NCBI GenBank assembly: GCA_964016885.1
Contig: OZ024747.1
Coordinates: 54,312,001-54,376,000, forward strand
Source: Eledone cirrhosa
Lineage: Eukaryota
Length of the DNA: 64,000 nucleotides
Reading direction: 5' to 3'
The position numbers were made by a program, and so were the translations under genes. This document shows, piece after piece, positions 6,418-64,000 of the stretch. Positions within the stretch are counted from its first letter, which is position 1. Every line of letters begins with the position of its first letter. The notes under the pieces were generated by a model. That model saw nothing but the letters and a program-made list of their open reading frames with translations. It had not been told where the DNA came from and searched no databases.

Positions 6418-6775
6418 TATATATATCTGTGTGTGTATTCATATATTAATGAGCTTTAATGATTTTCATTATATCATGATTTCCTCACGCAATCACCATC
6501 ATCCTACTAGCAAATCCTGTTCATCCTCCTGATATCTCGTTCTCACCGACATAATCATCACCACCACCATCACGATCATCATCATCATCACCACCATCAC
6601 CGCCGTCATCATCACCAACATCATCATCCCCACCACCATCATCACCATCATCATGATCATCATCACCATTATTGCTATTGTTTCCATCCAGCAGCAAGAA
6701 ACCGTAATGTTTTTTGTTCTGTTCATATTTTTGTGATGAATATCGTAGTTATTAATATATTATGATTATTATTCT

Positions 6776-7180
6776 GTGGGTTGGCAGTAATCGGTAAAGT
6801 TCGGATGCCATGCTTCGCAGCATAGAGTTACGCCCCTTTACGATCTGCGTTCAAATCTCGCCGCGGATAACTTCACTTTTCAACGTTACGGGCTCGATAA
6901 AATAAAGTACCAGCAATTCATTGAGTTAATTGCTGGCCTTGTGCCAAAAGTAGAAACAATTATTATTATTGACAATAGGGCGGTGGATTTTCAGTATCGG
7001 TAGAGGGTAGGACAACATGCTTTTGGGGCATATATTGAGGGTCCTTTAGATTCTGAGTTCAAATCCCGCTGTGGTTAGCTTTGCTTTTCATTCGTGCAGG
7101 GTCCTTAAAATAAAGTAACGTACTAGGTTCGTTTTAATCGACTTCCCCCTTGTGTCTAATTCAGAAACCCTTATTATTAC
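6776..7180 (+). mobile_element. Two head-to-tail tRNA-derived SINEs (Meta-domain-like core, (ATT)n tail)
   Basis: A-box TGGCAGTAATCGG, B-box GTTCAAATC, core ..cgggctcgataaaataaagtacc, end ggccttgtgccaaaagtagaaacaattattatt. Confidence 0.8.
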
Positions 7181-7277
7181 AATTTTTCATATTATTTTCG
7201 AGTTTCATATTCTTAATGATGCTGTGCACGATGATGATGACAATAATGATGATGCTGATAATGTTGATAATGATAAT

Positions 7278-7485
7278 GGTTTCCGATTTAGGCACAAAGT
7301 CAAATATATTTAGGAAGTGGAAGCCGATTAAATCGATACCAGTGCATTACTGGTATTTTATTTTATGGACCCCGTAAGGAAGAAAGACAAATCTAAGCTC
7401 AATGGATTTTGAACTCAGAACGCAAAGGGCCGTAAATCTATACCACAAATTATGGTGTCCGATGCTCTACCAATACTGCCATTCC
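7278..7485 (-). mobile_element. tRNA-derived SINE, same family
   Basis: Reverse complement of the core (ctggtattttattttatggaccccgtaagga) and B-box (tttgaactcaga). Confidence 0.75.
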
Positions 7486-8050: not shown

Positions 8051-8079
8051 CCTTTATTATTATTAATATGCTATTATAA

Positions 8080-8445
8080 GGGCGGTGGATTGGCAATATC
8101 GGTAGAGGGTCGGATGCCATGCTTTGCCGCATAGAGTTACGGCCCTTTATGATCTGAGTTCAAATCTCGCCGAGGTTAACTTTGCCTTTCATCCTTACGG
8201 GGTCGATAAAATAAAGTACCAGTCACGCACTGGGGTCGATTTCATCGACTTTTCCCTCCCCCCAAAATTGCTGGCCTTGTGCCTACATAAGAAACCATTA
8301 TTGATATGCTATTATCATTATTACTATTAAAGGTTGACTTTGCCTTTCATCCTTACGGGGTCGATAAAATAAAGTACCAGTAATGCACTGGGTAATTTGC
8401 TGGCCTTGTGCCTAAAGTAGAAACAATTTTTACTATTATTATTAT
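8080..8445 (+). mobile_element. Full-length tRNA-derived SINE plus a 5'-truncated copy in its tail
   Basis: ggcggtggatTGGCAATATCGG..GAGTTCAAATC..gcctttcatccttacggggtcgataaaataaagtaccag..gaaaccattatt; core repeated from 8331. Confidence 0.88.
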
Positions 8446-9789: not shown

Positions 9790-10334
9790 TTATATGTATA
9801 TATATATATATATGTGTATATATATCTATATGAATATATATGAATTTATATAAATATATATTATACTATGTCGTGTGTATGTATTTTTGTGTCAGTCTAA
9901 GCGTGTACATATTTATATTTATGAGTGTGTATGGCTTTAGTTTATGGATGTGTGCGCAAGCGTTATATTTCGTCGAATGAAATAGAATTGGAAATAAAAA
10001 ATCTATTGTCTTGATGTGTTTACCATTCCAACATCCCGTCCATTCCACTCCATTCCAAATTCTGTCTTCTCATACTTACACTATCACTTAAGTTCATCTA
10101 TATTCTCTTCTCTCCAATCCTTTCTCTCACCCTCTTCTTCACTTCGTTCTTCTTATGCTACCCTATATTTTTTACCAATAGTCATCATCTTCATAATTAT
10201 GATGATCATAACCATTGCCATTAACGATTTCACCAACGGCAATACCGTCCATACATCTGCGCCATTGAACACAACAACAAAAACAACAAAAAAAAAAACG
10301 ACTACGACTACTACTACTACTAATAATAATAATA

Positions 10335-10905
10335 ATTGTTTCTACTTTTGGCACAAGGCCAGCAATTACCCAGTGCATTACTGGTACTTTATTTTATCGA
10401 CCCCGTAAGTATGAAAGGCAAAGTTAACCTCGGCGGGATTTGAACTCAAATCATAAAGGGACGTAACTCTACGCTTCAAAGCATGGCGTCGGACCCTCTA
10501 CCGATACTGCCAATCCACGGCCCTATAATAATGATAATACAAATTTTGGAGAGGGGAAATTCGATTAAATTGATCCCAGTACGTTACTGGTACTATATTT
10601 TATTGACCTCAGAAGGATGAAAAGTAAAGGTAACTCCGGTAGGATTTGAATTCAGAACGTAAAGGGCTGTTACTCAATACCACACAGCATGTAGTCAGAC
10701 GCTCTCCGATAATAATAATAATAATTGTACCAAATTTTCGCACAAGGCCAGCAATTATCTCGGTGCATTACTGGTGTTTTGTTTTATCGACCACGAAAAG
10801 AAGAAAGGCAAAGTTAACCTGGCCGGGATTTGAACTCAGACCGTAAAAGGCTGTAACTCTATGCTGCAAAGCATGGCATCCGATCCTCTACCGATACTTC
10901 TAACC
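10335..10905 (-). mobile_element. Three head-to-tail SINE copies
   Basis: Core and B-box reverse complements at about 10335-10524, 10540-10710 and 10725-10905, separated by (AAT)n. Confidence 0.85.
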
Positions 10906-11693
10906 CAATAATAATAACAATAATTTCATCACCATAATTAGTATCAACATCAAAGAGATAGCATTTCAAAAAACACAGTAATACGAACAAGAAGAACATC
11001 AACAATAAAAACAGCGTCACAATTGTTTCCGCCAACAAACACCACAGATATTTCCCACTCGGATTAGTTAATGTATGTAAAAAAAAAAAAGCATTAAATG
11101 CCAGCTTAAAATAGGCAACATCATTCAAATTAGCCCGTAACATGTAGATCTCCATCTTCATGTCCCTATTTATCTGAAGAGGTCTGGATCTAGGACCTGA
11201 CTAAACTCATATAAACTAGAAGGCTCCAGAACGTATAACTGCAAATTTGTCTCATAGAGAAACTGCACATATAGTAAGAACTCTTTACTTTCTGCATCAA
11301 GAAGGCTGAACATTTATATCCTGTTGCTCATTACGGAATCCCCTATTAGCTAACTTTAAGTTAAAAGTTAAAAATATATGCCATAAATTTCAAAGTAATT
11401 ATTTTGAAATATCTAAATTCACTGAATCGTTCAATGAAACCAATTGATATTTCTGCAAGCTATTACGAGAGACTTAGCTCCTAGTATCCATCAAGCAAAC
11501 GCAGAAAAGTGGCTCCTATACGTACAAATCCCTAAATCACTTACTATAGCACGATACACCTAACTAGATAATTAAAAAGAATGTTATCGATCATGCAATC
11601 AAAATGAAAGATATTTATAAGGTGGGACTACCACACAGTGAAGCAGGATCGAATAGGCAATGCACATCTGAACCCACATACTATATTGACCTC

Positions 11694-12882: not shown

Positions 12883-13185
<303 letters not shown>

Positions 13186-18776: not shown

Positions 18777-18871
18777 TATATGTACATATATATATATATA
18801 TAATAGTAATGAACGAAAGATATATACTTTACCTCATCTCCATTTATTTCGTTATATATATATTTCGAAAG

Positions 18872-19058
18872 GGTGGTACATTGGCAGTATCGGTAGAGGG
18901 TCGGACGCCCCTTGCTTTGCAGCAAAGAGTTATGGCCATTTATGGTCTGAGTTCAAATCCCGCCGAAGTTAAATTTGCCTGTCATCCTTGCGGTGCCGAT
19001 AAAATAAGGTACCAATAATACACTGGGATAATTCCTAGCCAAAGTAGAAACAATTATA
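18872..19058 (+). mobile_element. tRNA-derived SINE
   Basis: TGGCAGTATCGG A-box, GAGTTCAAATCC B-box, core and gtagaaacaattat end. Confidence 0.82.
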
Positions 19059-27577: not shown

Positions 27578-27580
<3 letters not shown>

Positions 27581-27737
27581 CGAAGGAAATGTGGTAAGGA
27601 ACCAGGTGGACCATAACGCACCAAAGTACTCAATACTTAGGGTAGTAGAGTGGGTAATATGAACGAGTAGGACCCCGACGGCTGAGCTCAAGCCGTCTCG
27701 ACGGCTTGAGCTCAGCCGTCGGGGTCCTACTCGTTCC

Positions 27738-28213: not shown

Positions 28214-28445
28214 ATATAGACACTGTATATGAAAGGTATATTATGGTGTGCCGTGTATGTTGCTGAGACTTAAGCGTTGGACATTGTAACAAATAATGTT
28301 ATGTTTGATGAGGATATGATGCGGTCTGAGAGCAGACCACGGCTTGAGGATTAATTCATTTACAACCGCAATATAAACATTCCGCTGTGTATGTATGTAT
28401 GTATATATGCTTCATACATACATTCATACGTAGGTGTATGTATGT

Positions 28446-28519
<74 letters not shown>

Positions 28520-28522
<3 letters not shown>

Positions 28523-28932
28523 AGGCAGATGCATTAAAAATATCTTTGTTGGCGGAGAGGCCAGATATTCTAATAGAGATGCTTTTTACTAGGTTATCAG
28601 TGATGTTTTGGGGGGTGGTTTGAATTAACATTAATATATTTAAGGGACTCGTTAGGTTTGTGGTACGGGTAATAGAGGGAAGTATCTAGGTCGAGAGTGA
28701 CATCTAAGAAGTTGGCCCTAGTCAAATTAGAATCTATAGTTATACTAAATCCTAGATTAGAGAAGAAAGAGCTTAAGTTTTTCCGAAACCCATCGGTGGT
28801 TCTGGGGCTAACGTTATGCAGGGCGAAGAGGCCGTCGTCTCGGTATAAACCTCCAGTTAGGCCGGTAAAGAGGTTCTTCAGGTTATGTAGGATGTACAGG
28901 CCCACAAGATCGCTAATTTCAGCCGAGTCGCT
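28520..28932 (-). mobile_element. Inverted partial copy of the adjacent PLE RT
   Basis: Reverse complement of about 29857-30269 with about 5 differences; ends at ..gcctccTA into (TA)n. Confidence 0.93.
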
Positions 28933-30330
28933 TCCTTGAAGAACATCCCTATCCCTCCAAGGAAACTATACTTAAAAACACTCATCAGACGTACCGACGA
29001 GTTCATCAAGCGAATTAGATGGAGGGCCTTCTTCCTCGACAACCCTGATGTAGCATCTACCAATGATGAGAAGTTCGGCTTCAAAACGAATAAGACACCA
29101 CCCACCAACAGCCTACTCCAACCATTTGAAGAAGACCTCTTCAAGATGATCAAGGATATTAAATTCCGTAGAGCCACCACACCATTCCAGGCCTACTTAA
29201 ATGCCGAATTACGGAAAATAAAAAAATCCCCTAATCTTTATGTCTCCTCCGATAAAACCAAAAACGTTTATGAGGTAGACCCACAGACCTACAATAAGCT
29301 GGCAAAAAATACCATCACGACCACCTACAAAAAGGTAATAGAGAGGGCGCTGACTGAGACAAACGCGGCCGGAAAAGAAATCGCCAAGTCCCTTAATTTA
29401 CATGACCGAACCGAACCTTTAAGGGTAAAGACCCCGCACTTTACCCTGAAGGACCATAAGGGAAATTTCCTCAACAAACCATCAGTCAGACTTATCAACC
29501 CCACTCGTTCTGACATCGGCTCTATCAGTAAGAAGATCCTGGATAGAGTTCTACCATCATTGCGGGCAGCCTCACCACTTCCACTCTGGAGTAGAACATC
29601 TGAGGCAATATCATGGTTCCAAGAATTACCCGATAAACACCACACTCGCTTCCTGCAACTCGACATAGAAAACTACTATGCCTCTATCTCGGAGCCCCTC
29701 CTGAAGGACGCAATTAACTTTGCCAGGAATTTTACCACCATTACCGATGCTGAGCAAGTTATTATCCTCCACGCTCGTAAGACCTTTCTATACCACGATG
29801 GATCTTACTGGATCAACAAGAAATCTCAGACCCCATTTGACGTTAGCATGGGGGCGAGCGACTCGGCTGAAATTAGCGATCTTGTGGGCCTGTACATCCT
29901 ACATAACCTGAAGAACTTCTTTACCGGCCTAACTGGAGGTTTATACCGAGACGACGGCCTCTTCGCCCTGCATAAGGTTAGCCCCAGAACCACCGATGGG
30001 TTTCGGAAAAACTTAAGCTCTTTCTTCTCTAATCTAGGATTTAGTATAACTATAGATTCTAATTTGACTAGGGCCAACTTCTTAGAAGTCACTCTCGACC
30101 TAGATACTTCCCTCTATTACCCGTACCACAAACCTAACGAGTCCCTTAAATATATTAATGTTAATTCAAACCACCCCCAAAACATCACTGATAACCTAGT
30201 AAAAAGCGTCTCTATTAGAATATCTGGCCTCTCCGCCAACAAAGATATTTTTAATGCATCTGCCTCCTACTACAATGACGCCCTAGCCCGTAGCGGATTT
30301 AAAGATAAGATAACTTACCTAGAAACCACC

Positions 30331-30332
<2 letters not shown>
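28933..30332 (+). mobile_element. Penelope-like element RT ORF (YRDD type), truncated at both ends
   Basis: About 465 open codons with KNIPIP, TLKDHK, RLINP, LDIENYYASI, MGASDSAEISDLVG, GLYRDDGL, NFLEVTLDL, SNHP; no GIY-YIG; runs into (TA)n. Confidence 0.92.
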
Positions 30333-30407
<75 letters not shown>

Positions 30408-31589: not shown

Positions 31590-31722
31590 AACAAAGTGTG
31601 TGTGGTAAGATACCAGCTAGACCATAACGCAGCAGAGTACTCAATACTTAGGTTAGTAGAGTGGGTAATATGAAAAAAGCTCGGATCTAGCTCTCGAAGC
31701 GGCCGGACTTCAGCCCTCGTTG
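31590..31722 (-). mobile_element. Diverged family A 3' tip
   Basis: gtggtaagataccagctagaccataacgcagcagagtactcaatacttaggttagtagagtgggtaata resembles 1515-1583. Confidence 0.7.
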
Positions 31723-35003: not shown

Positions 35004-36635
35004 TTCTGCGTCATCTCTCAAGCCACATACAATAACCTCGCCTTCGAACACCTAAGCGACAGTGAACTGTACACAGTGATCCCGGACATGACCGCAGCCC
35101 AAATCGAAAAACAGACCAACTCCATTTGGTTCGATATCTGTAGGAGAAGACAACTCCCGAATAAAATTAAACTCAACTACACCACTAGAAATAGCAGACT
35201 GCCCACTTTCTACCACCTCATCAAGACCCACAAGAATAGCACTAAGACGCATATAAGATCCATCGTCTCTAGCATAGAAGGACCCCTATACAAAATTTCC
35301 TGGCTTCTCTCCCAGGTCCTCAAGCCTCTACTCTCCACCTTCCCCGGACATGTCAGTAGCTCCGACGAAGTTATACGTAGATTACACCAACTCCAGCCAG
35401 AACAACTTAAACTTAATAAATACGCTTTTAGCCTTGACGCTGTCTCCCTCTACACTACAGTCCCCGCTCACCCAGCTGTCGATTTATTGACGGACTGCGT
35501 GGTCGCAGAGAACATCCACTGCTACGGCCTCTACCCGACGGACATACACCAACTTTTGTCCTTCACAGTAGACAACACGTACTCCACCTTCCACCACCAC
35601 ACATACAGACAGACAACAGGATTACCCATGGGATCCAGCCTCTCGGGCCTGCTGGCCATCACTTACATGAACCAGCTAGAATGCCGAGCCCTCAACACCT
35701 GCCATTCCCATGCCTTCTTCACCCGATATGTAGATGACATACTCATCCTTACATCATCCCGTGAGGAGGCAGAGAAAATATACACAACATTCTCCAGCAT
35801 GGACGCCAGTATAAAGTTCAGCATGGAACACCCCGATGACCGCGGATCCCTATCCCTGCTGGACTTCCAACTCAGGGTAACAGAGGAAGGCAACATCCAC
35901 ACCTGCTTCTATAAAAAAGCCGCCAGCAGGGACCTGTTCGTACATTTCAGATCGGCCCTCCCACTCGGTGCCAAGTTCGGATACATAAAGAACGAACTGG
36001 CACGTATCAAGAACAAATGCACCGACGCCAGAGACCGAGACACACACACCACACATTTCCTGGAAGTACTCAAACTGAACGGATACACGACATCCACCAC
36101 AAACCGTGCCAGAAAGAACAGAGGACACCACACCCGAGGCACTAACACTTGCTTCCTGAAGCTCCCACACTTCAGTGAAGAAACAACAACAGCCATCCGC
36201 AGAGCCATCAGACGAGAGGGTCTGGATATTCAACTGGCCCATTCGGGTCCTTCTTTGCGCGGACGGCCGGCTAAGAGACACTCCACCAGACATGACAACT
36301 GCTGCAGACTAGCCAACTGCCCCATCAACGACACAGACCTATGCCACCAGGCTTACGTAGTCTACAGACTAGAGTGTGACAAATGCAACAACTTCTACGT
36401 AGGTAGCACCACCAGACCACTCCACATAAGAATAAAAGAACACCTCAATACTAACGCTTCCTCATTTAAGAAACACCTAGTTAAATGCAAAAACACCGAT
36501 AAAAACATAACAGTTAGGATAGAAACTAAGGAAAGAAACCTCGGTAATCTTAGAATCAAGGAAGCACTTATTATAGATAGAACACATCCACCAATCAATA
36601 ATAGACTAGAGCTCAACACCCAATTTATAACCTGA
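35004..36635 (+). CDS. Penelope-like element polyprotein (RT + C-terminal GIY-YIG endonuclease), 5'-truncated but uninterrupted
   Basis: Open from FCVISQATY..HLSD; motifs FYHLIKTHK, SLDAVSLYTTVP, QTTGLPMGSSLS, RYVDD, LSLLD; GIY-YIG VVYRLECDKCNNFYVGSTTRPLHIRIKEH..KEAL..IN. Confidence 0.93.
   Translation, partial: FCVISQATYNNLAFEHLSDSELYTVIPDMTAAQIEKQTNSIWFDICRRRQLPNKIKLNYTTRNSRLPTFYHLIKTHKNSTKTHIRSIVSSIEGPLYKISWLLSQVLKPLLSTFPGHVSSSDEVIRRLHQLQPEQLKLNKYAFSLDAVSLYTTVPAHPAVDLLTDCVVAENIHCYGLYPTDIHQLLSFTVDNTYSTFHHHTYRQTTGLPMGSSLSGLLAITYMNQLECRALNTCHSHAFFTRYVDDILILTSSREEAEKIYTTFSSMDASIKFSMEHPDDRGSLSLLDFQLRVTEEGNIHTCFYKKAASRDLFVHFRSALPLGAKFGYIKNELARIKNKCTDARDRDTHTTHFLEVLKLNGYTTSTTNRARKNRGHHTRGTNTCFLKLPHFSEETTTAIRRAIRREGLDIQLAHSGPSLRGRPAKRHSTRHDNCCRLANCPINDTDLCHQAYVVYRLECDKCNNFYVGSTTRPLHIRIKEHLNTNASSFKKHLVKCKNTDKNITVRIETKERNLGNLRIKEALIIDRTHPPINNRLELNTQFIT

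Positions 36636-37233: not shown

Positions 37234-37236
<3 letters not shown>
36636..37236 (+). mobile_element. 3' UTR / pseudo-LTR of the PLE with HHR-like motif
   Basis: CCT-CCGAAGA-AGAGAT-ATT-ATCTC-GAAA-AT-TA-AGG at about 37040-37074, AATAAA at 37082, ends cctccaTATATA. Confidence 0.7.
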
Positions 37237-38559: not shown

Positions 38560-39130
38560 GGGCGCTGGACAACATGCTTTGCGACATAGAGTTACCCCTC
38601 ATCTTTACGGGTCGATGAATTAAAGAAGCAATATCGTACTGGGGTCGATACGATCGAATTTCGCTCATCCGAAATTGTAGGCCTTTTGCCTAAATCAGAA
38701 ACCATTATTATGATTATTAACTGGCGGTGGATTTGGTAGTATCGGTAGAGGGCCGGACACCATGCTTTGCCACTTAGAGTTACAGCCCTTTACTGTCTGA
38801 GTTCAAATCCCGCCGAGGTTAACTTTGCCTTTCATCCTTACGGGGTCGATAAAATAAAGTACCAGTAATGCACTGGGTTAATTGCTGGCCTTGTGCCAAA
38901 AATAGAAACAATTATTATGATTATTAACTTTTATTTTAATACTAAGAAGGGTGATTGATAGAATCCTTAGAGGGTTGAACATATTTTGTTGTTGAATTTT
39001 GCTTCCGGTACATTGCGTTCTGTGTTCAAATCCGACAGATGTCAACTTTCACCTTCTTCCTTCCGGTATTGATAAAAGAAATAACGTTAATGCAATGAGC
39101 GTCAATTTAATCGAGTTAAACTTCTTCCAA
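38560..39130 (+). mobile_element. Cluster of three SINE copies (38723-38925 near full length)
   Basis: A/B boxes, core gcctttcatccttacggggtcgataaaataaagtaccag, (ATT)n tails. Confidence 0.85.
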
Positions 39131-40057: not shown

Positions 40058-40175
40058 AGAATAAAGGCGGTAAAAACCAGTTAGCCCATTACTCATCAGA
40101 TTACTCGATACTTGGGGTAGTAGAGTGGCTAATATGCTGAATTCGGGGCCCCGACGGCTGAGCTCCAGCCGTTTC
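40058..40175 (-). mobile_element. Diverged family A 3' tip, truncated exactly at the HHR GAAAC
   Basis: ..ccccgacggctgagctccagccgtttc|atata; TA repeats on both sides. Confidence 0.7.
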
Positions 40176-43194: not shown

Positions 43195-44400
43195 AAACAA
43201 AGATGGTGGTGACGTTGGTTATTGGTGACCAAAGCAACGATGGTGGTGACGTTGGTTGTTGGTGACCAAAGCAAAGATGGTGGTGACGTTGGTTGTTGGT
43301 GGCCAAAACAAAGATGGTGGTGACGTTGGTTGTTGGTGACCAAAACAAAGATGGTGGTGACGTTGGTTGTTGGTGACCAAAGCAACGATGGTGGTGACGT
43401 TGGTTGTTGGTGACCAAAACAAAGATGGTGGTGACGTTGGTTGTTGGTGACGTTGGTTGTTGGTGACCAAAACAAAGATGGTGGTGACGTTGGTTGTTGG
43501 TGACCAAAACAAAGATGGTGGTGACGTTGGTTGTTGGTGACGTTGGTTGTTGGTGACCAAAACAAAGATGGTGGTGACGTTGGTTGTTGGTGACGTTGGT
43601 TGTTGGTGACCAAAGCAAAGATGGTGATGACGTTGGTTGTTGGTGACCAAAGCAACGATGGTGGTGACGTTGGTTATTGGTGACCAAAGCAACGATGGTG
43701 GTGACGTTGGTTGTTGGTGACAAAAGCAAAGATGGTGGTGACGTTGGTTGTTGGTGACCAAAACAAAGATGGTGGTGACGTTGGTTGTTGGTGACGTTGG
43801 TTGTTGGTGACCAAAGCAACGATGGTGGTGACGTTGGTTGTTGGTGACCAAAACAACGATGGTGGTGACGTTGGTTGTTGGTGACGTTGGTTGTTGGTGA
43901 CCAAAGCAAAGATGGTGATGACGTTGGTTGTTGGTGACCAAAGCAACGATGGTGATGACGTTGGTTGTTGGTGACCAAAACAAAGATGGAGGTGACGTTC
44001 GTTGTTGGTGACCAAAGCAACGATGGTGGTGACGTTGGTTGTTGGTGACCAAAACAAAGATGGAGGTGACGTTGGTTGTTGGTGACCAAAGCAACGATGG
44101 TGGTGACGTTGGTTGTTGGTGGCCAAAGCAACGATGGTGGTGACGTTGATTGTTGGTGATCAAAACAAAGATGGTGGTGACGTTGGTTGTTGGTGACCAA
44201 AACAAAGATGGTGGTGACGTTGGTTGTTGGTGACCAAAGCAACGATGGTGATGACGTTGATTGTTGGTGATCAAAACAAAGATGGTGGTGACGTTGGTTG
44301 TTGGTGACCAAAACAAAGATGGTGGTGACGTTGGTTGTTGGTGACCAAAACAACGATGGTGATGACGTTGATTGTTGGTGACCAAAACAAAGATGTTGGT
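43195..44400. repeat. 37-bp minisatellite with interspersed 16-bp sub-units
   Basis: Unit gttggttgttggtgaccaaa(a/g)caa(a/c)gatggtggtgac, about 30 copies; sub-unit gttggttgttggtgac. Confidence 0.95.
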
Positions 44401-44814
44401 GACGGTGACTGTGGTGACGAATGCGATAGTGGTGGTAATGGATGTGGTATCGAAAACCAAAATGGTTGTGGTGCTGTCGCTAGTAGTGGCAGGGATGATG
44501 GCGGTGTTTGTGGTGGTTTTGGTGCTGGTGATGATCTTGGTTGTGGTATTGGTGGTAGTAGTGACATGAAGATGGTGTTGTTGGTGTTGATGGTGGTTAT
44601 GGGAATGATGGTTGTGGCATTGGTGGTAGTAGTTGCAGGAATGATGCTGGTGTCGGTGATGGTGATGACGATGCTTGTGGTCGTGCCGACAGTAGTAGCC
44701 ATGTTGGTGGTGGCGGTGATGGTGGTGTTGGTGTTGGTAGTGATGGTGTTGGTTGTGTTGCCTGTGGTAGGTGTGGCAGTGGTAATGGTGGTGTTGGTGG
44801 TGGTGATGGTGGTG

Positions 44815-46140
44815 GTTATGGTGATGGTTGTGGTATTGATAATGGTGGTATTAGTGGTGATGGTGATGGTGATGGTTATGGTTGTGGTATTGATGCTGGT
44901 GGTATTAGCGGTGATGGTGATGGTGATGGCGATGGTGATGGTGATGGTTATGGTTGTGGTTGTGGTATTGATGCTGGTGGTATTAGTGGTGATGGTGATG
45001 GTGATGGTTATGGTGATGGTGATGGTTATGGTTGTGGTATTGATGCTGGTGGTATTAGTGGTGATGGTGATGGTGATGGTTATGGTGATGGTGATGGTTA
45101 TGGTTGTGGTATTGATGCTGGTGGTATTAGTGGTGATGGTGATGGTGATGGTTATGGTTGTGGTATTGATGCTGGTGGTATTAGTGGTGATGGTGATGGT
45201 GATGGTTATGGTTGTGGTATTGATGCTGGTGGTATTAGTGGTGATGGTGATGGTTATGCTTGTGGTATTGATGCTGGTGGTATTAGTGGTGATGGTGATG
45301 GTTATGGTTATGGTTGTGGTATTGATGCTGGTGGTATTAGTGGTGATGGTGATGGTGATGGTGATGGTTATGGTTGTGGTATTGATGCTGGTGGTATTAG
45401 TGGTGATGGTGATGGTGATGGTTATGATTGTGGTATTGATGCTGGTGGTATTAGTGGTGATGGTGATGGTTATGGTTGTGGTATTGATGCTGGTGGTATT
45501 AGTGGTGATGGTGATGGTGATGCTGATGGTTATGGTTGTGGTATTGATGCTGGTGGTATTAGTGGTGATGGTGATGGTGATGGTGATGTTTATGGTTGTG
45601 GTATTGATGATGGTGGTATTAGTGGTGATGGTGATGGTGATGGTGATGGTGATGTTTATGGTTGTGGTATTGATGATGGTGGTATTAGTGGTGATGGTGA
45701 TGGTTATAGTTGTGGTATTGATGCTGGTGGTATTATTGCTGATGGTGATGGTTATGGTTGTGGTATTGATGCTGGTGGTATTAGTGGTGATGGTGATGGT
45801 TATGGTTGAGGTATTGATGATGGTGGTATTAGTGGTGATGGTGATGGTGATCGTGATGGTTATGGTTGTGGTATTGATGCTGGTGATATTAGTGGTGATG
45901 GTGATGGTGATGGTGATGGTTATGGTTGTGGTATTGATGCTGGTGGTATTAGTGGCATTGGTGATGGTGTTGGTTATGGTTGTGGTATTGATGCTGGTGG
46001 TATTAGTGGCATTGGTGATGGTGATGGTTATGGTTGTGGTATTGATGCTGGTGGTATTAGTGGCATTGGTGATGGTTATGGTTGTGGTATTGATACTGGT
46101 GGTATTAGTGGCATTGGTGATGGTGATGGTGATGGCGATG
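44815..46140. repeat. Variable-length minisatellite ggttatggttgtggtattgatgctggtggtattagt(ggtgat)n
   Basis: More than 20 units differing in the number of ggtgat hexamers; embedded in a triplet low-complexity region of about 42100-46670. Confidence 0.93.
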
Positions 46141-46568
46141 GTTCTGGTAATGTTGTTATGTTTTGATTATATTTGAGGCAGTGAAGTTACGGATTCTGAT
46201 GACGGGGTTGGGTTGGTTGGACGTGTGGTTGTTGTTGTTGTTGGTCGTAGTGTTGGTGGACGTGATGGCGGAAAATATGAAGGTGGTGGTGAAGAGTGTG
46301 ATAATAGGGATGGTGGCAATGGTGATGCTAGTTGTTGTGATATGGAGATGGTGCTCCTGCCACTGTCAAGGCTGATGATGATGATGATGATGATATCGGT
46401 GGCAGTGGTATTGTTGATGGTAGTGGTGCTGTCTTTGCTCATAATAATGGCGATTAAAGTAGGGATGGTGATGCTGATGACATTGATGATGATGATGATG
46501 ATGATGATGGTGATGCTGATGACATTGATGATGATGATGATGAGGATGATGATGATGACGACGATAAC

Positions 46569-48229: not shown

Positions 48230-48850
48230 AGGACGGTACAAATGGCAGAAATCCAGCCTCTGAAGACAGGACCAAAGCCATCCGCCCTCAGGACTGCGCC
48301 AGATAACGATGGTCGACCCTATCGAAAGCTTTCTACTGATCTAAATTGATCAAGGACCCACCTGTGCCAGGTTCCCAAGCTATCCTCTCTACGCTGTATC
48401 GCATGAGGTGGAGGTTGTCGTGGATGTATCTTTCTGGAATGGTGCATGTCTGTGCCTCTCCCACCAGACAACCAGCGACAAGCGCGAACCTCTTTGCTAG
48501 CACCTTAGCCAAAATCTTGAACCCTCTGTTTAGCAGAGTTATGGGCCAGAAATTATCTATGTTATCACCCTTGTTCGGGTCCTTTCTCAACAGCACCACC
48601 GCTCCTCGGCTCACAGAGCCGGGAATTCTCCCGTTCTGCTGCCAGTTGCAATAGACGTCCGCCAAGAGGTCTCCGAACAAGTCTGGCATATGTACGTAAA
48701 GTTCGTAGAGCAGACCAACCAAACCAGGCGATTTACCCATTGTGCAGCCAGTCATTGCCTCCAGTACTTCAGAAGGTGTTATCGGCTTTTCGCAACACTC
48801 CGCCTCAGTGGCCGTGACAGTCCGTTGAGGTAGGCACTAGAGTCCATCCC
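48230..48850 (-). pseudogene. L1/Tx1-clade LINE reverse transcriptase fragment
   Basis: KSPGLVGLLYELY..VLLRK..NFWPITLLNRGFKILAKVLAKR..EAQTC..IHDNL..LINLDQ*KAFDRVDH. Confidence 0.9.
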
Positions 48851-49167: not shown

Positions 49168-50090
49168 ATCACGATAAATTAACGGAGGCATAGGCCCTCG
49201 CTATTCCCTGTAAATAATGTGCTCAAAGGAGAAGAAATCCTGAGCTCTTTAAAATACAATATGTTGAAATGGTAACACACCAGAGAGAGATATACAGTGC
49301 GCTATCAATAAAACAGGGAAAAAAACCACCAGTGTATGGAATCTATAACCTATGAAAGGCAGACTATAGACACGATAATTAAAAATATAAATTAAAGCGT
49401 AAATAAATACCTCTATAACTATATAACACACGTACAAATCCAAAGATACTAATACAAAGATAAGTTTCACCAGTAATTTGTTGAAAAGAATGGGTTAGCC
49501 TCGGTTCATCAGCGTGTATTTCAGAGAATACTAAGAGAATTTTAAAAGTGACTGTCCAGCTACACGTGGGAGAGAGACGTCACAGCGTGTTTAAGGGCAG
49601 TGAACCAGTGGCCTCTGAGGGATGAACTGCTAGAAAGGGCAGCCCAAAGCCACTCAGAGAAGTGTGCTCAACCAAACAGAGAAATGAAAGACTGTTATTA
49701 GGAGAGAAATATCACGATAAATAAACGGAGGCATAGGCCCTCGCTATTCCCTGTAAATAATGTGCTCAAAGGAGAAGAAATCCTGAGCTCTTTAAAATAC
49801 TATATGTTGAAAAGGTAACACACCAGAGAGAGATATACAGGGCGCTATCAATAAAACAGCGAAAAAAACCACCAGTGTATGGAATCTATAACCTATGAAA
49901 GGTTATAGATTCCATACACTGGTGGTGTTTTTCCCTGTTTTATTGATAGCGCCCTGTAAAGGTTATAGATTCCATACACTAGTGGTTTTTTTCACTGTTT
50001 TATTGATAGCGCACTGTATATATCTCTCTGGTGTGTTACCTTTTCAACATATTGTATTTTTCAACATATTGTATTATAAATATTTATATA
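49168..50090 (-). mobile_element. Non-coding 543-bp HHR-containing unit in partial tandem plus inverted arm (non-autonomous PLE or retrozyme-like)
   Basis: 49168-49357 repeats at 49711-49900; HHR at 49451-49520 (-) ATACACG-CTGATGA-ACC..GGT-GAAACTTATC-TTTGTAT; inverted partial copies from 49901 and 49961. Confidence 0.75.
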
Positions 50091-51810: not shown

Positions 51811-51935
<125 letters not shown>

Positions 51936-51944
51936 AATAATAAT

Positions 51945-52446
51945 AATTGCTTCTACTTTAGCCACAAGGCCAGCAAATTACCCAGTGCATTACCGGTACT
52001 TTATTTTATCGACCCCGTAAGGATGAAAGGCAAAGTCAACCTCGGCGGGATTTGAACTCAGATCGTAAAGGGACGTAACTACTACTACTAATAATAATAA
52101 TAATTGCTTCTACTTTAGGCACAAGGCCAGCAAATCCCCAGTGCATTACTGGTACTTTATTTTATCGACCCCGTAAGGATGAAAGGCAAAGTCAACCTCG
52201 GCGGGCTAATAATAATAATAATAATAATAATAATTGTTTCTAGATTTGGTATAAGTTCAGCAATTTGAAGGGATGTGGAATGTTGATTGATTCGACCCCA
52301 GTATGTTACTGGTGGCCCTATTTTACCGACACCCGTAAAGATAAAATGCAAAGTTTACCTCAGAGTGAGTAAAACACAGAACATAAAGTGACGTAACGAT
52401 ATGACAAAGTATTTTGTCCGGCATTCTACGGATTCTGCCACGCTAC
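51945..52446 (-). mobile_element. Three head-to-tail SINE copies flanked by (CTA)n(CTG)n(TAA)n and (CCT)n(CTA)n triplet tracts
   Basis: Core reverse complement ttttatcgaccccgtaaggatgaaaggcaaagtcaacctcggcggg, repeated. Confidence 0.85.
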
Positions 52447-54627: not shown

Positions 54628-55018
54628 TAGGAGGAGAGTTTTATTGTAGCACAATAAAGCAATGCAAATATCGGATAAGTAGCGCTCAACAGTTTATAGG
54701 ACTGGAGTATAAATAATACAAAATCAAAAGATGGTTAAAAGAGTTCCATGTATTTTATTATGCGCATTTCAAAAACAAATATCATCATGGGATGATATTT
54801 GCGTTCACATCAGATAAAAATGATATGAAGCTTAAAAAACACTTGCGAGCAGTGAATTTAACACTTCACTGCTCGCAAATGTGTTTTAAGCTTCATATCA
54901 TGTCTCCCTATTTTATCTGATGAGAACGCAAATATCATCCCATGATGATATTTGTTTTTGAAATGCGCATAATAAAATAAATGGAACTCTTTTAACCATC
55001 TTTTGATTTTATATTATA
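54628..55018. mobile_element. Fold-back PLE end with an HHR in each arm
   Basis: About 54713-54855 is the reverse complement of 54865-55016; TA repeats on both sides. Confidence 0.85.
54909..54979 (+). ncRNA. Intact minimal type-I hammerhead ribozyme
   Basis: TATTTTAT-CTGATGA-GAACGCAAATATCATC-CCAT-GATGATATTTGTTTTT-GAAA-TGCGCA-TA-ATAAAATA; 8-bp perfect stem I, palindromic loop III. Confidence 0.88.
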
Positions 55019-55023
55019 CATAC

Positions 55024-55999: not shown

Positions 56000-56005
<6 letters not shown>

Positions 56006-56184
56006 TGAGATTCTACAGGACTAGAACTGTTTCATTCTTTAGAAATCATCAGGATTCCTGATGATTTCTAAAGAATGAAACAGTTCTAGTCCTGTAGAAT
56101 CTCATCTATATTAAAACTTTTATACTCTGCTATGTATTGAGTACCTTACTTACTGTGGTTACCTCCGATTCAACCCGGAATAAC

Positions 56185-56185
<1 letters not shown>
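56000..56185. mobile_element. Fold-back PLE end, palindrome centred at 56055 next to an HHR core
   Basis: ..gaaatcatcagga-t-tcCTGATGAtttctaaagaatGAAACagttctaGTC..; about 55-bp arms; long arm runs to 56185. Confidence 0.85.
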
Positions 56186-56214
<29 letters not shown>

Positions 56215-56218
<4 letters not shown>

Positions 56219-56422
56219 CGAAGGAAATGTGGTAAGGAACCAAGTGGACCATAACGCACCAAAGTACTCAATACTTAGGGTAATAGAGTGGGTAACAGGA
56301 ACGAGTAGGACCTCGATGGCTAAGCTCAAGCCGTTTCGACGGCTAATTCTGGACTGAATTCTGGACTGAATTAGCCGTCGAAACGCCTTGAGCTCAGCCG
56401 TCGGGGTCCTACTCGTTCCTAT
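56215..56422. mobile_element. Fold-back family A copy 3
   Basis: Same ends as 1501-1714 and 27578-27740; centre gacggctaattctggactgaattctggactgaattagccgtc. Confidence 0.85.
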
Positions 56423-56451: not shown

Positions 56452-56779
56452 TATAATTGAATATAAAAGAAAAACGAATAGATATATATACATATATGAG
56501 TTCAAATCATAAGGGACCAGATTCGGTAGTTACCACAATTCCTGTTTGTATATATTTTCTTGAGTTTTTCTTAAATTGAGACAAGCAAACCCAATTGTCT
56601 ATAGTTAGTATTCTTTTCACCTTAGCGAATCTGGTCCCTTACGATTTGAACTCATATATGTATATATTTATGTTCGTTTTCTTTTATATTCAATTATAAT
56701 ATACGGCTCGGAAATATCTCTTAGAGCTATTTTGTTGTAAGAGACTATTTTGAGTTCCTAACTCAATATATACCTTTGA
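56452..56779. mobile_element. Fold-back insertion between (TA)n tracts (no HHR visible)
   Basis: Arms 56452-56525 and 56626-56698 are inverted; about 100-bp spacer; long arm runs to 56779. Confidence 0.7.
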
Positions 56780-60161: not shown

Positions 60162-60559
60162 AGAAAATGAGGTTTCTTTAAATGAAAAAAAACAAGAAGC
60201 CCTACAGGAGTGAAAGTATGAGAAAAAAAATGGAAAATTCAGCTAGGTTCTTTTTAAGAATATTTATTTGTTTCTTTACCGGTTTCACAGTTCTTATGCT
60301 ATTCAAAAGTAGAATTGAAATGTAGGGTTTGTGGTTTTTCTCGCATCTTTATATATGAAAGTGATATCATTTTTTTCAAAATGAATACGAAAAATTGGAA
60401 GGAGGTAGGTGGAGAGGTTAAAACAGCTCAAAATACAGTAAATTATTATAATAAACAGTTTATAAAGCTATGTCTCATACTTCATTGAACATTTTTTCAA
60501 ACAACGATGTATACAAAATCCTATTGTGTTAAAAATAATAATTACGCACGAAGCAAATT

Positions 60560-60865
60560 ATTCATTAAAGTAATTACCAAATACGTTTTTACATTAAATA
60601 TTGATTTATGAACGTTGGGACTTTTCAAAATTAGTTATTTATAAGTAAGTATCTCATTATAACTCTCAATAAACAGTTCTACAGCTCAGTAAGAGAATTT
60701 GCTTACATTTAAAAAGACTCCAAATTCTCTGGCTGTGCTGTAGCGCTGTTTAGTGAGACTTCTAATGGCATAGTTACTTATAAATAACTGATGCTGATAA
60801 GTCCCGATAAGGGACGAAACGTTCGTAAATCAATATTTAATGTAAAAATGTAAATACTTTAATGA

Positions 60866-60868
<3 letters not shown>
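60560..60868. mobile_element. Old diverged fold-back element with HHR at 60789-60833 (+)
   Basis: TGATG-CTGATAA-GTCCC-GATAA-GGGAC-GAAAC-GTTC-GTA-AATCA; 60560-60710 is a decayed reverse complement of 60722-60868. Confidence 0.7.
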
Positions 60869-62104: not shown

Positions 62105-62156
<52 letters not shown>

Positions 62157-64000
62157 GTAGAAGGCTTGGTTATCCTCAAGCAGCACACAAGGAATGATGA
62201 GGGAGTATGTCTACCCACGGATAAGTCTGGTAGGATGTCAATAGACAGCATGCCGAACTACATCAAGGCTAAGCAAGCCCACATCACCATCACGAGCGAA
62301 ATTGCACAGCAAAAACATGAAATGAGAGAGAAAATCCTCAACGCTCACATGATGATGTGCACCGACATCCTAAAGCCAAGCAGGCACACTGCCAACAATT
62401 TCCAGGCGTCTAACAATGGCATACCACCCTTGTATGGGCTCCGCAAAGACCATAAGACAGTCGACGACCCGACAACAGGACCACCAACAATACCTGTATG
62501 CGGAGCAAATATAGCTAGCAACTACAGGATCTCCTACTTCCTCTCAATGGTTATACGCCCCATAATCAAGATGTCCCCAGATGTATGTGACAGTACAGAG
62601 GACCTCCTCAGCAGAATCAGTAAGTGCAACAAAAACACAAACCTATCCAACTGCATAATAGGTTGTATGGATGTGGTATCACTGTACCTATCCATTAACA
62701 TTGATTTTGCTGTGGAAAAATGAATGTGTGGAGATGATCATTGAGAGTGAGGTGGAGTTCTGCGACGTCGACACAGACAAACTGGGCCTCCTACTTAAAC
62801 TTGCCTATGACACTGACTACCTAGACAGCCATGACCTTAGACGTTTCTGCCCCAGTAGACCCATAAGAGGTAGACCACCCACCATAACCACAATGGCAAA
62901 AAAGACACCGATGGGAAGGTGGATTGGGTGGACCAAAGCTATACGGACCCCCCAAAACAATGATCAGGTAAGAAAAATGGTGGCACATGCAATGGGGGCT
63001 AGTATCACAACTACCCTAAAGGGCCACATATTCAAATTCAACGAGAAGATCTACACCCAAAGTGAGGGAACAGCCATTGGCGTCAGCATAGCTGGTGACG
63101 TTGCCAACCTTTTTATGGTATGGTGGGAAAGGAGACTCAAATATCTCCTTCATGAGAGCTCCATAGACCTCATCATGTACTCTCGTTAGGTAGACGACAT
63201 CAATATATTAATAAGGACATCCCCACAAGAGAGTACTAACAAGTTGTATTTAGAACGTAGCACAATGGAAAGCATCCAGCAGATAGCTAATTCCATACAC
63301 CAGAATATAACTGTAACTATTGACTACCCTTCCAAACACCCTAACAATAGACTACCTGTATTAGACACGGAACTCTGGATTAACACTGTAGACGAGAGAG
63401 CCCAAATTCTCCACTCACACTATGCTAAACCCATGGCCTCCAAAAACCTGATACTCAAAAACTCAGCAATGTCCAGTAGTGCTAAGTTTAATATTCCGAT
63501 CGCAGACTTGGTACGAGTGATGAAGAACGTGTCCCGCATGTGCGACCCAACAGAAATGGAAAGACACATCCCACACTTCATCAACCGCATGCAGTTCTTT
63601 GGCTACAAGCAAAGAGACAGAATCAGAGTATATGAAGGAGCGACGGAGAAGTATAAGACCCTCATAGAACTGGACATGAAAGGAATTTGCCCATTATACA
63701 GGAGCAAATCATGGAATAGCTTAGATAGGACTAGACATAAAATAGGGAAAGCCACCTCATGGTACGACAACCAGAGATACCAGAGTGTCATGTTTGTGGA
63801 CGCTACCCCTGGAGGAAATTAGCTAACCAGTGTAGAAAGGCCCTGAGAAAGACCCACTTAAAGATTAAGGTGGTAGAAAAGCCAGGAACCACGATAAAAT
63901 CCCTGATCAGCAAAACCTACCCTTTTAAGAAAACCCACTGTACTACTAGGAAATGTATTAGATGTAGAGTAAACCCCCGGATAAACTGTAAGACTAGAAA
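62157..64000 (+). pseudogene. Third PLE family RT pseudogene, continuing beyond the window
   Basis: PTDKSGR, PPLYGLRKDHK, MDVVSLY, QSEGTAIG, SR*VDDI, LPVLD, KVVEKPG, Cys-rich linker; frameshift near 62720 and stops at about 63187 and 63820; starts at a (TA)n tract. Confidence 0.9.

Follow-up and report, generated by a model that had tools for sequence, protein, structure and literature searches.

The question raised by this locus was how a Penelope-like element (PLE) came to lie in a (TA)n tract as two inverted arms that both stop, at their 3′ ends, inside the open reading frame (ORF). The window (the whole stretch of DNA analyzed, 64,000 nt of Eledone cirrhosa contig OZ024747.1) contained here a Hydra-type PLE within a (TA)n tract, composed of a 412-nt inverted arm joined to a 1,400-nt direct arm, with the following features (window coordinates):

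28437..28520, no strand: left (TA)n target tract, ending in the two letters that come next on the template of the inverted arm
28521..28932, minus strand: inverted arm, 412 nt, with reverse transcriptase (RT) motifs 4–7 plus part of the thumb and its 3′ end at the left tract; copy of 29857–30267, matched in tblastn by P0012 residues 314–427 on the minus strand
28932..28933, no strand: head-to-head junction of the two 5′-truncated ends, with at most 1 shared letter, placed by where the matches of relatives start
28933..30332, plus strand: direct arm, 1,400 nt, Hydra-type PLE RT frame (RWR, DKT, and YRDD motifs) without the first 9 codons and without everything beyond the thumb
29857..30267, plus strand: direct-arm segment of which the inverted arm holds a second copy; rare variants at 29859 and 29880 common to both
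30268..30332, plus strand: the 65 nt that only one arm has, of tail-like length, with ORF sequence and without the tail hairpin
30333..30401, no strand: right (TA)n target tract; a target-site duplication is indistinguishable inside the repeat

Self-comparison of the window gave one long high-identity pair at the locus (28521–28932 versus 30267–29857, 98.8%), with 411 nt of the ORF occurring twice, and the fold-back from the ORF interior claimed by the sequence-only reading was thus real. Over 414 aligned columns, the arms differed by four substitutions (plus-arm positions 29917, 29976, 30087, and 30208) and by one C that only the inverted arm has (about 1%), in line with the roughly five differences counted earlier. 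The inter-arm alignment reached 2 letters into the left tract (template TA, 30268–30269); the last non-tract template positions were 30267 for the inverted arm and 30332 for the direct arm, 65 nt apart (63 nt counting the shared TA), close to the earlier estimate of about 60 nt. The duplicated parts were separated by a spacer of 924 nt, and the locus was not a palindrome; at the central junction no more than 1 letter was shared, the matches of relatives beginning at 28932 or 28933. Both arms, read from the outside in, were copies of the sense strand.

The direct arm displayed an open frame of 467 codons that stayed in frame to its end (...KITYLETTP) and then ran into the 69-nt (AT)n tract. It was also 5′-truncated, lacking the first 9 codons as judged from contigs of relatives in the reads. 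Its 3′ end fell where the RT thumb finishes and the conserved W[FY]NP motif is still about 12 residues away, a point that by homology is inside the ORF but after the RT; the earlier placement of both ends inside the RT gene was therefore right as to the ORF but not as to the RT at the direct end. Linker, endonuclease, pLTR, and hammerhead were all absent from the insert, and its endonuclease and pLTR were absent from the window: tblastn with the C-termini of homologs found no match to the missing parts adjoining the insert or elsewhere in the window, except for a single weak match (E 0.07) to another PLE at 36240–36497, which upheld the earlier statement that neither arm includes the endonuclease or pLTR. 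Pfam found no family in the arm, and Rfam gave no match on the insert among the 150 of 288 matches listed, all of which were microRNA families below the gathering score. The second, different PLE (35004–36635) carried a 543-codon frame with RVT_1 and C-terminal GIY-YIG (Pfam); its 5′ end adjoined a TA-rich stretch, and its 3′ untranslated part apparently ran to a tract at 37236.

The Hydra clade is marked by RWK, DKT, CxCX5C, C-terminal GIY-YIG, and a (TA)n target (PMC8557442). Of 8000 candidates scored, 2010 were homologs of the arm, and the best 120 of these showed 40–52% identity and were mostly about 700 aa long; the arm began a few residues past their start and stopped at the thumb end, while the homologs continued into an arginine-rich stretch, the W[FY]NP motif, the CxCx5C linker, and the endonuclease. 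RWR at arm residue 29 corresponded to the RWK motif near the N-terminus (RW[KR] in 116/120 best homologs), DKT at residue 107 to the Hydra-clade DKG-to-DKT change (DK[TS] in 120/120), and the (TA)n tracts flanking the insert on both sides to Hydra-clade insertion. CxCx5C was present in 105/120 best homologs, which were only 40–52% identical to the arm, and GIY-YIG was found by Pfam in one of the five homologs scanned, both linker and endonuclease being missing from the locus copy itself. The arm's 467 residues contained no Cys and thus no N-terminal CxC domain; an N-terminal endonuclease was likewise absent, the start codon in relatives lying 9 codons upstream of the arm. A hammerhead core-motif pattern (pattern only, unfolded) followed the ORF in 53 of the 72 related loci listed, and the arm aligned by eye with the Hydra rows in the supplement of PMC8557442. 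By its RWR and DKT motifs, its (TA)n target, and its alignment with the homologs, the arm is taken to be a Hydra-type PLE RT. The published octopus family Hydra-1_Obim was rejected as its source, being a different family whose protein differs throughout (by eye, same supplement). Elsewhere in the window, broken RT-like frames were seen by eye at 62115–63822 (PLE-like) and 48333–48836 on the minus strand (non-LTR-like), neither with a Pfam match.

The reads of four runs were aligned on the arm, with the last 30 bases at the repeat excluded and 33 nt of the inverted arm included, and the variant rows listed comprised 40 of 379 substitutions and 12 of 17 indels. The letter common to both arms was lacking in 140/147 reads at 29859 and in 41/46 reads at 29880 (run X8); the two arms shared these rare variants and therefore came from one source template. 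At 29917 and 30087, the family carried the inverted-arm letter (43/44 and 107/114 reads, respectively), so the plus arm had changed there, while the changes at 29976 and 30208 and the extra C, which were not among the variant rows listed, would lie on the inverted arm. On this pattern of variants, the two arms were probably identical at birth. The family was multi-copy and continued past the arm end, two close contigs reaching 143 letters beyond 30322. That these contigs (X3 record 15 and X1 record 8, from different runs) extended by exactly the same length suggests that family copies have a break or branch point in common there. Around 30268 the summed depth did not fall, being 4808 then 6377 in X4, where it rose from 5′ to 3′, and 51.5 then 65.6 in X8 (depths, not copy numbers), and most family copies therefore pass this site. 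Neither a head-to-head junction nor an empty site was seen in any of the four runs, in which junction reads would not show as joints. Pile-ups of read ends in X8, a RAD run, coincided with AATT restriction sites and were discarded as uninformative on element ends.

The sequence-only reading had placed both 3′ ends at TA and had taken the locus as the clearest evidence for TA priming on both strands. At the inverted end, 2 nt were indeed common to template and tract; since a match of 2 nt or more is expected by chance at 18.5% of ORF positions, this end was not beyond chance, and for a microhomology of this length priming, end-joining, and deletion are indistinguishable. At the direct end, TA was not an observation, the template past 30332 being absent from the locus and the read alignment stopping before the repeat. 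Past 30332 no close relative was found (residues 350–466, 22 candidates, none scored; 0 contig matches), and among 50% representatives no closer protein covered the arm end (best 52%; one 63% fragment stopped at residue 337). In the open frame, TA would require a Tyr codon next; at an ungapped offset, which is approximate for such distant homologs, Tyr stood there in 0/102 usable homologs (of 120) and a residue with a codon able to begin with T in at most 10/102. One diverged X4 contig read through in frame as ...A-P-R-P, with CCA then CGC (13/22 letters alike by eye). These indirect signs point to a microhomology of at most 1 nt at the direct end. Four TA/AT sites were available between 58 and 75 nt before the long end, and a better one, a run of 4 nt at a distance of 88 nt, went unused. 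TA priming is thus unproven at the inverted end and unlikely at the direct end, and the locus did not provide the clear evidence ascribed to it.

The normal ends of relatives were examined on metagenome contigs at 77 related loci, drawn from the best 80 of 531 and chosen for best full-length match. Upstream of the ORF, 27/39 non-redundant relative families had at least two GCTC..GAGC hairpin motifs, compared with 0.27 families with paired hairpins on average in shuffled upstream regions; the last two hairpins were a median of 62 nt apart, with 55–75 nt in 19/27 families. These paired hairpins sat 35–140 nt upstream of the ORF start (L001–L077), often just after a TA run, and an alternating TA run of at least 4 lay within 14 nt before the hairpin in 31/64 cases, against a background of 17%. 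Six loci had both a (TA)n end and a tandem twin showing the template, and the letters shared with the tract were 5 (L001), 4 (L017), 0 (L030), 2 (L037), 2 (L057), and 4 (L058), that is, at least 2 at 5/6 readable ends versus a null of 0.22 (p 0.0025). Four of these six ends lay before the first hairpin and two before the second, and in L001, L030, L037, and L057 an arm with the whole ORF ended at the short site. No related locus (0/77) ended early at a TA tract, the set having been picked for best full-length match, so the survey proposed earlier for other copies 3′-truncated at TA gave no second case in a sample that bears on it weakly. Within the same loci, L004 and L005 contained nine TA units inside a tandem junction (L004 454–472 and L005 692–710), a TA tract of L017 had a different Hydra-type family on each side, the two facing each other with their tails (2597–2621), and an ORF in L056 contained a tandem repeat of about 123 nt (1932–2669).

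A similar picture was obtained for seven small non-coding families of the window with ribozyme-like or hairpin motifs: the shared TA letters were 3, 5, 4, 4, 3, and 2 plus one ambiguous end (54707, counted as a miss), giving a microhomology of at least 3 nt in 5/7 families (p about 0.0005–0.0007 versus their own sequence). Because of unclear orientation, 26396/37665 and 34007 were left out, 40175 (0 nt shared) and 50367 (1 nt shared) were 5′ junctions, and an apparent 7-nt match at 56491 was dropped, as the inverted repeat continued past it and the true end was 56456. TA microhomology is therefore a property of normal ends, which favors the TA link of the sequence-only reading in general. The TA in the tandem templates may be a relic of earlier insertions, and microhomology at normal ends can come from joining as well as priming.

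Four small fold-backs of the window had end spacings of 79, 80, 82, and 85 nt, and near-perfect palindromic centers with loops of about 2–8 nt were seen in small fold-backs at 27698, 56055, 13027, and 54860. One small non-coding (TA)n fold-back family (1504–1711, 27580–27737, and 56218–56419; also 31590–31720 and 40063–40175) had three copies with identical 3′ ends 80 nt apart, differing centers, and a hammerhead-like 3′ half. More small fold-backs or partial tandems bounded by TA tracts lay at 12886–13082, 54628–55023, 56004–56185, 56456–56779, 60559–60866, and 49170–50060; several of them had CTGATGA..GAAA cores and palindromic centers, and these elements are likely to be non-autonomous PLE derivatives. 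The window further contained (i) a dispersed, clustered repeat of about 200 nt (6758–7481, 8060–8437, 10323–10924, 18869–19057, 38599–38929, and 51935–52440), probably a SINE in view of its tRNA-like head (by eye) and (ATT)n-like ends, and (ii) a long 37-nt minisatellite with a degenerate, G/T-rich array of triplets after it (43195–46170). The microsatellite load and the types of repeat would fit an octopus as host.

The geometry of the locus was that of a normal PLE inverted unit, with 3′ ends outward in (TA)n and 5′-truncated ends joined (PMC8557442 and PMC3846280), and with one end longer, here by 65 nt, compared to 79–85 nt in the window elements and the 62-nt median hairpin spacing in relatives. 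Two independent ends in a 2,400-nt element would fall 55–90 nt apart with a probability of 0.029 (distance window chosen post hoc). The Poseidon PLE of Anolis, for which a dimer model has been put forward, cleaves and extends both strands in vitro; its two start sites are internal, lie next to each other, delimit the tail, and need no homology to the cleaved DNA. Internal initiation is the normal PLE mode in vitro (PMC11167929). Given the match to the hairpin spacing, the 0.029 chance, and the Poseidon mode, we therefore favor a normal two-strand insertion with a wrong RNA start, namely one insertion in which both target strands were primed inside the ORF at the usual tail distance, and we give this reading about an even chance of being correct. 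The internal origin from one sense template read from both target strands, as proposed earlier, is thus the likeliest route, while the accompanying premise that target-primed reverse transcription gives 5′ truncation only was too strong, given PLE internal initiation in vitro (PMC11167929) and the internal priming described for L1/Alu (PMC4859970).

We infer an RNA template, two primers, a dimer, and the following order of events: (i) a Hydra-type PLE protein, probably a dimer by analogy with PMC11167929, would nick both strands of one (TA)n tract; (ii) both target 3′ ends would be extended on a sense RNA of the element's own family, starting inside the ORF and not at the pair of sites near the pLTR end that normally serve as starts, with the two starts keeping the usual tail distance (65 nt); (iii) one cDNA would extend for 1,400 nt, nearly to the start codon, and the other for 412 nt; and (iv) the far ends of the two cDNAs would be connected head to head, sharing no more than 1 nt. 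TA–RNA pairing may have fixed the short start (2 nt) and was probably unneeded at the long start, and the five inter-arm differences would be post-insertion changes or assembly errors. The starts may have shifted into the ORF because the complex was misplaced or the RNA was already cut short near 30332, and the latter could underlie either of the two leading models. Against two-strand priming stood the ORF site without hairpin or special fold, when initiation in vitro needed a specific RNA region, as well as the lack of a second mid-ORF case, the nesting of the inverted arm in the direct arm at both ends, which fold-back copying would demand, the palindromic centers of small window fold-backs, and the absence of the junction and of an empty site from every run. 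The GCTC..GAGC hairpin had 0 exact matches at 30268 or in the arm and two one-mismatch matches elsewhere, and a cryptic hairpin at 30268 was dropped, with no motif and no unusual fold (z −0.83).

Copying from one primer followed by fold-back would account for the nesting of the inverted arm at both ends and for arms identical at birth: a single start at 30332 would give a cDNA that, on reaching 28933, switched back to its own position 29857; copying toward the start would halt 65 nt before it, where the complex sitting on the start site stood in the way, and the product would be joined to the other target end via the 2-nt TA match, the short end being a stop and not a start. The palindromic centers with loops of about 2–8 nt in small window fold-backs fit such copying, and self-priming on the antisense strand has been proposed for palindromic centers (PMC3846280). 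The junction at this locus, however, would involve a 924-nt loop and at most 1 shared letter; the whole-ORF arms that end at the short site in four relatives indicate that this site functions as a start; and inverted units can have the tail at either end (PMC8557442), a pattern that fold-back copying cannot produce. We consider this route the main rival, somewhat unlikely as a whole. A strict sub-case of two-strand priming, counted apart, would have both target 3′ ends paired with TA in the RNA and the pairing choose both sites. It draws on the 2-nt match at the inverted end, on the enrichment at normal ends (5/6 relatives and 5/7 window families), and on the alternating runs before hairpins; the commonness of a 2-nt match (0.185), the four TA/AT sites and the unused 4-nt run, the approximate homolog counts at the next residue, and the CCA–CGC of the diverged contig all speak against it and make it very improbable here.

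Long inverted repeats usually lose their center, not both outer ends. A normal full fold-back that later lost both outer parts by deletion to the flanking (TA)n, or had them replaced by TA tracts, would have to lose about 1 kb twice over, in separate deletions whose break points happened to lie 65 nt apart (0.029), in arms only about 1% apart, and no 3′ part was found in the window; although microhomology-mediated deletion would give an identical 2-nt junction, and such deletions are common in rotifer PLE copies (PMC3846280), this history seems improbable to a high degree. An origin by DNA-templated repair (break-induced template switching) of a (TA)n break, with a donor copied with a strand switch, or an assembly chimera would fit the absence of any strand-changing read or contig listed in 4/4 runs and the homopolymer indel among the inter-arm differences. 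On the other hand, there was no homology at the switch, the layout matched the normal PLE layout seen many times in the window, and the inverted arm carried the family letter at two of the four substitutions, so that both arms had changed separately; furthermore, with 33 nt of the inverted arm in the aligned stretch, junction reads lie straight and are unlisted as joints, and the runs may come from individuals without the insertion. We regard repair or chimera as highly unlikely.

Returning to two-strand priming, the kept spacing hints that the enzyme, and not an RNA end signal, sets the distance between the starts. A further and doubtful possibility, which we would not expect to hold, is a two-headed ruler, in which two TA-plus-hairpin signals about 62 nt apart at the normal RNA end serve one protomer each and the spacing, built into the protein complex, persists mid-ORF without the signals. 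If so, both target strands would prime at once, tails and head-to-head fold-backs would be explained together, and the locus would be a natural experiment separating spacing from signal. PLE tail and inverted-unit formation is described as an open question needing experiments (PMC8557442); the kept spacing makes the tail question testable, and tail spacing without tail sequence, together with paired hairpins with upstream TA, leads to specific predictions for the existing in vitro PLE assay. For annotation, such copies would mislead about family ends. As a single dead copy, the locus itself matters little biologically; were it transcribed, double-stranded RNA directed against the family could arise from its 412-bp fold-back.

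Inverted 5′-truncated copies, tails, (TA)n targeting, and internal initiation are already published for PLEs, while neither a PLE with both 3′ ends in mid-ORF nor an account of the paired hairpins was found in the texts searched, which were mostly open-access papers. The locus resembled the Hydra clade (PMC8557442) in its RWK-like and DKT motifs, the ORF of about 700 aa with CxCX5C linker in homologs, the (TA)n target, and the head-to-head inverted copy at the 5′ side, as noted for Penelope-13_HM, but its 3′ ends lay in the ORF instead of the pLTR, the tail stem-loop found at PLE inverted-unit ends had no counterpart hairpin motif at 30268, and the copy lacked hammerhead, linker, and endonuclease. 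Adineta Pen2a (PMC3846280) likewise has an inverted piece from the coding-region interior at the PLE 5′ side, but its main copy keeps the pLTRs, while both arms of the locus lacked the normal 3′ end. In L1 twin priming and L1/Alu internal priming (PMC4859970 and PMC5322556), a second strand primes internally to give an inversion, and internal priming gives 3′ truncation; however, L1 twin priming keeps the poly(A) end, with small indels at the inversion point, and L1 internal priming uses A-rich pairing, whereas the locus kept no normal 3′ end, had 411 nt present twice as an overlap of its arms, and showed a pairing of 2 nt or less. In Terminon/Athena (PMC6431247), attachment is served by a short target-repeat copy that lies immediately 3′ of the hammerhead, resembling the TA runs at normal Hydra ends, but these elements are endonuclease-free and telomeric, and the repeat copy is at the element end. 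Poseidon (PMC11167929) starts in a stem-loop about 111–118 nt into the ORF of a tandem transcript with a tail of 30–40 nt, compared to starts at the locus that are separated by 65 nt, lie about 1360–1430 nt into the ORF, and showed no hairpin; on the favored reading, the two agree in the use of both target strands, in two starts inside the RNA with the intervening stretch on one end only, and in needing no homology.
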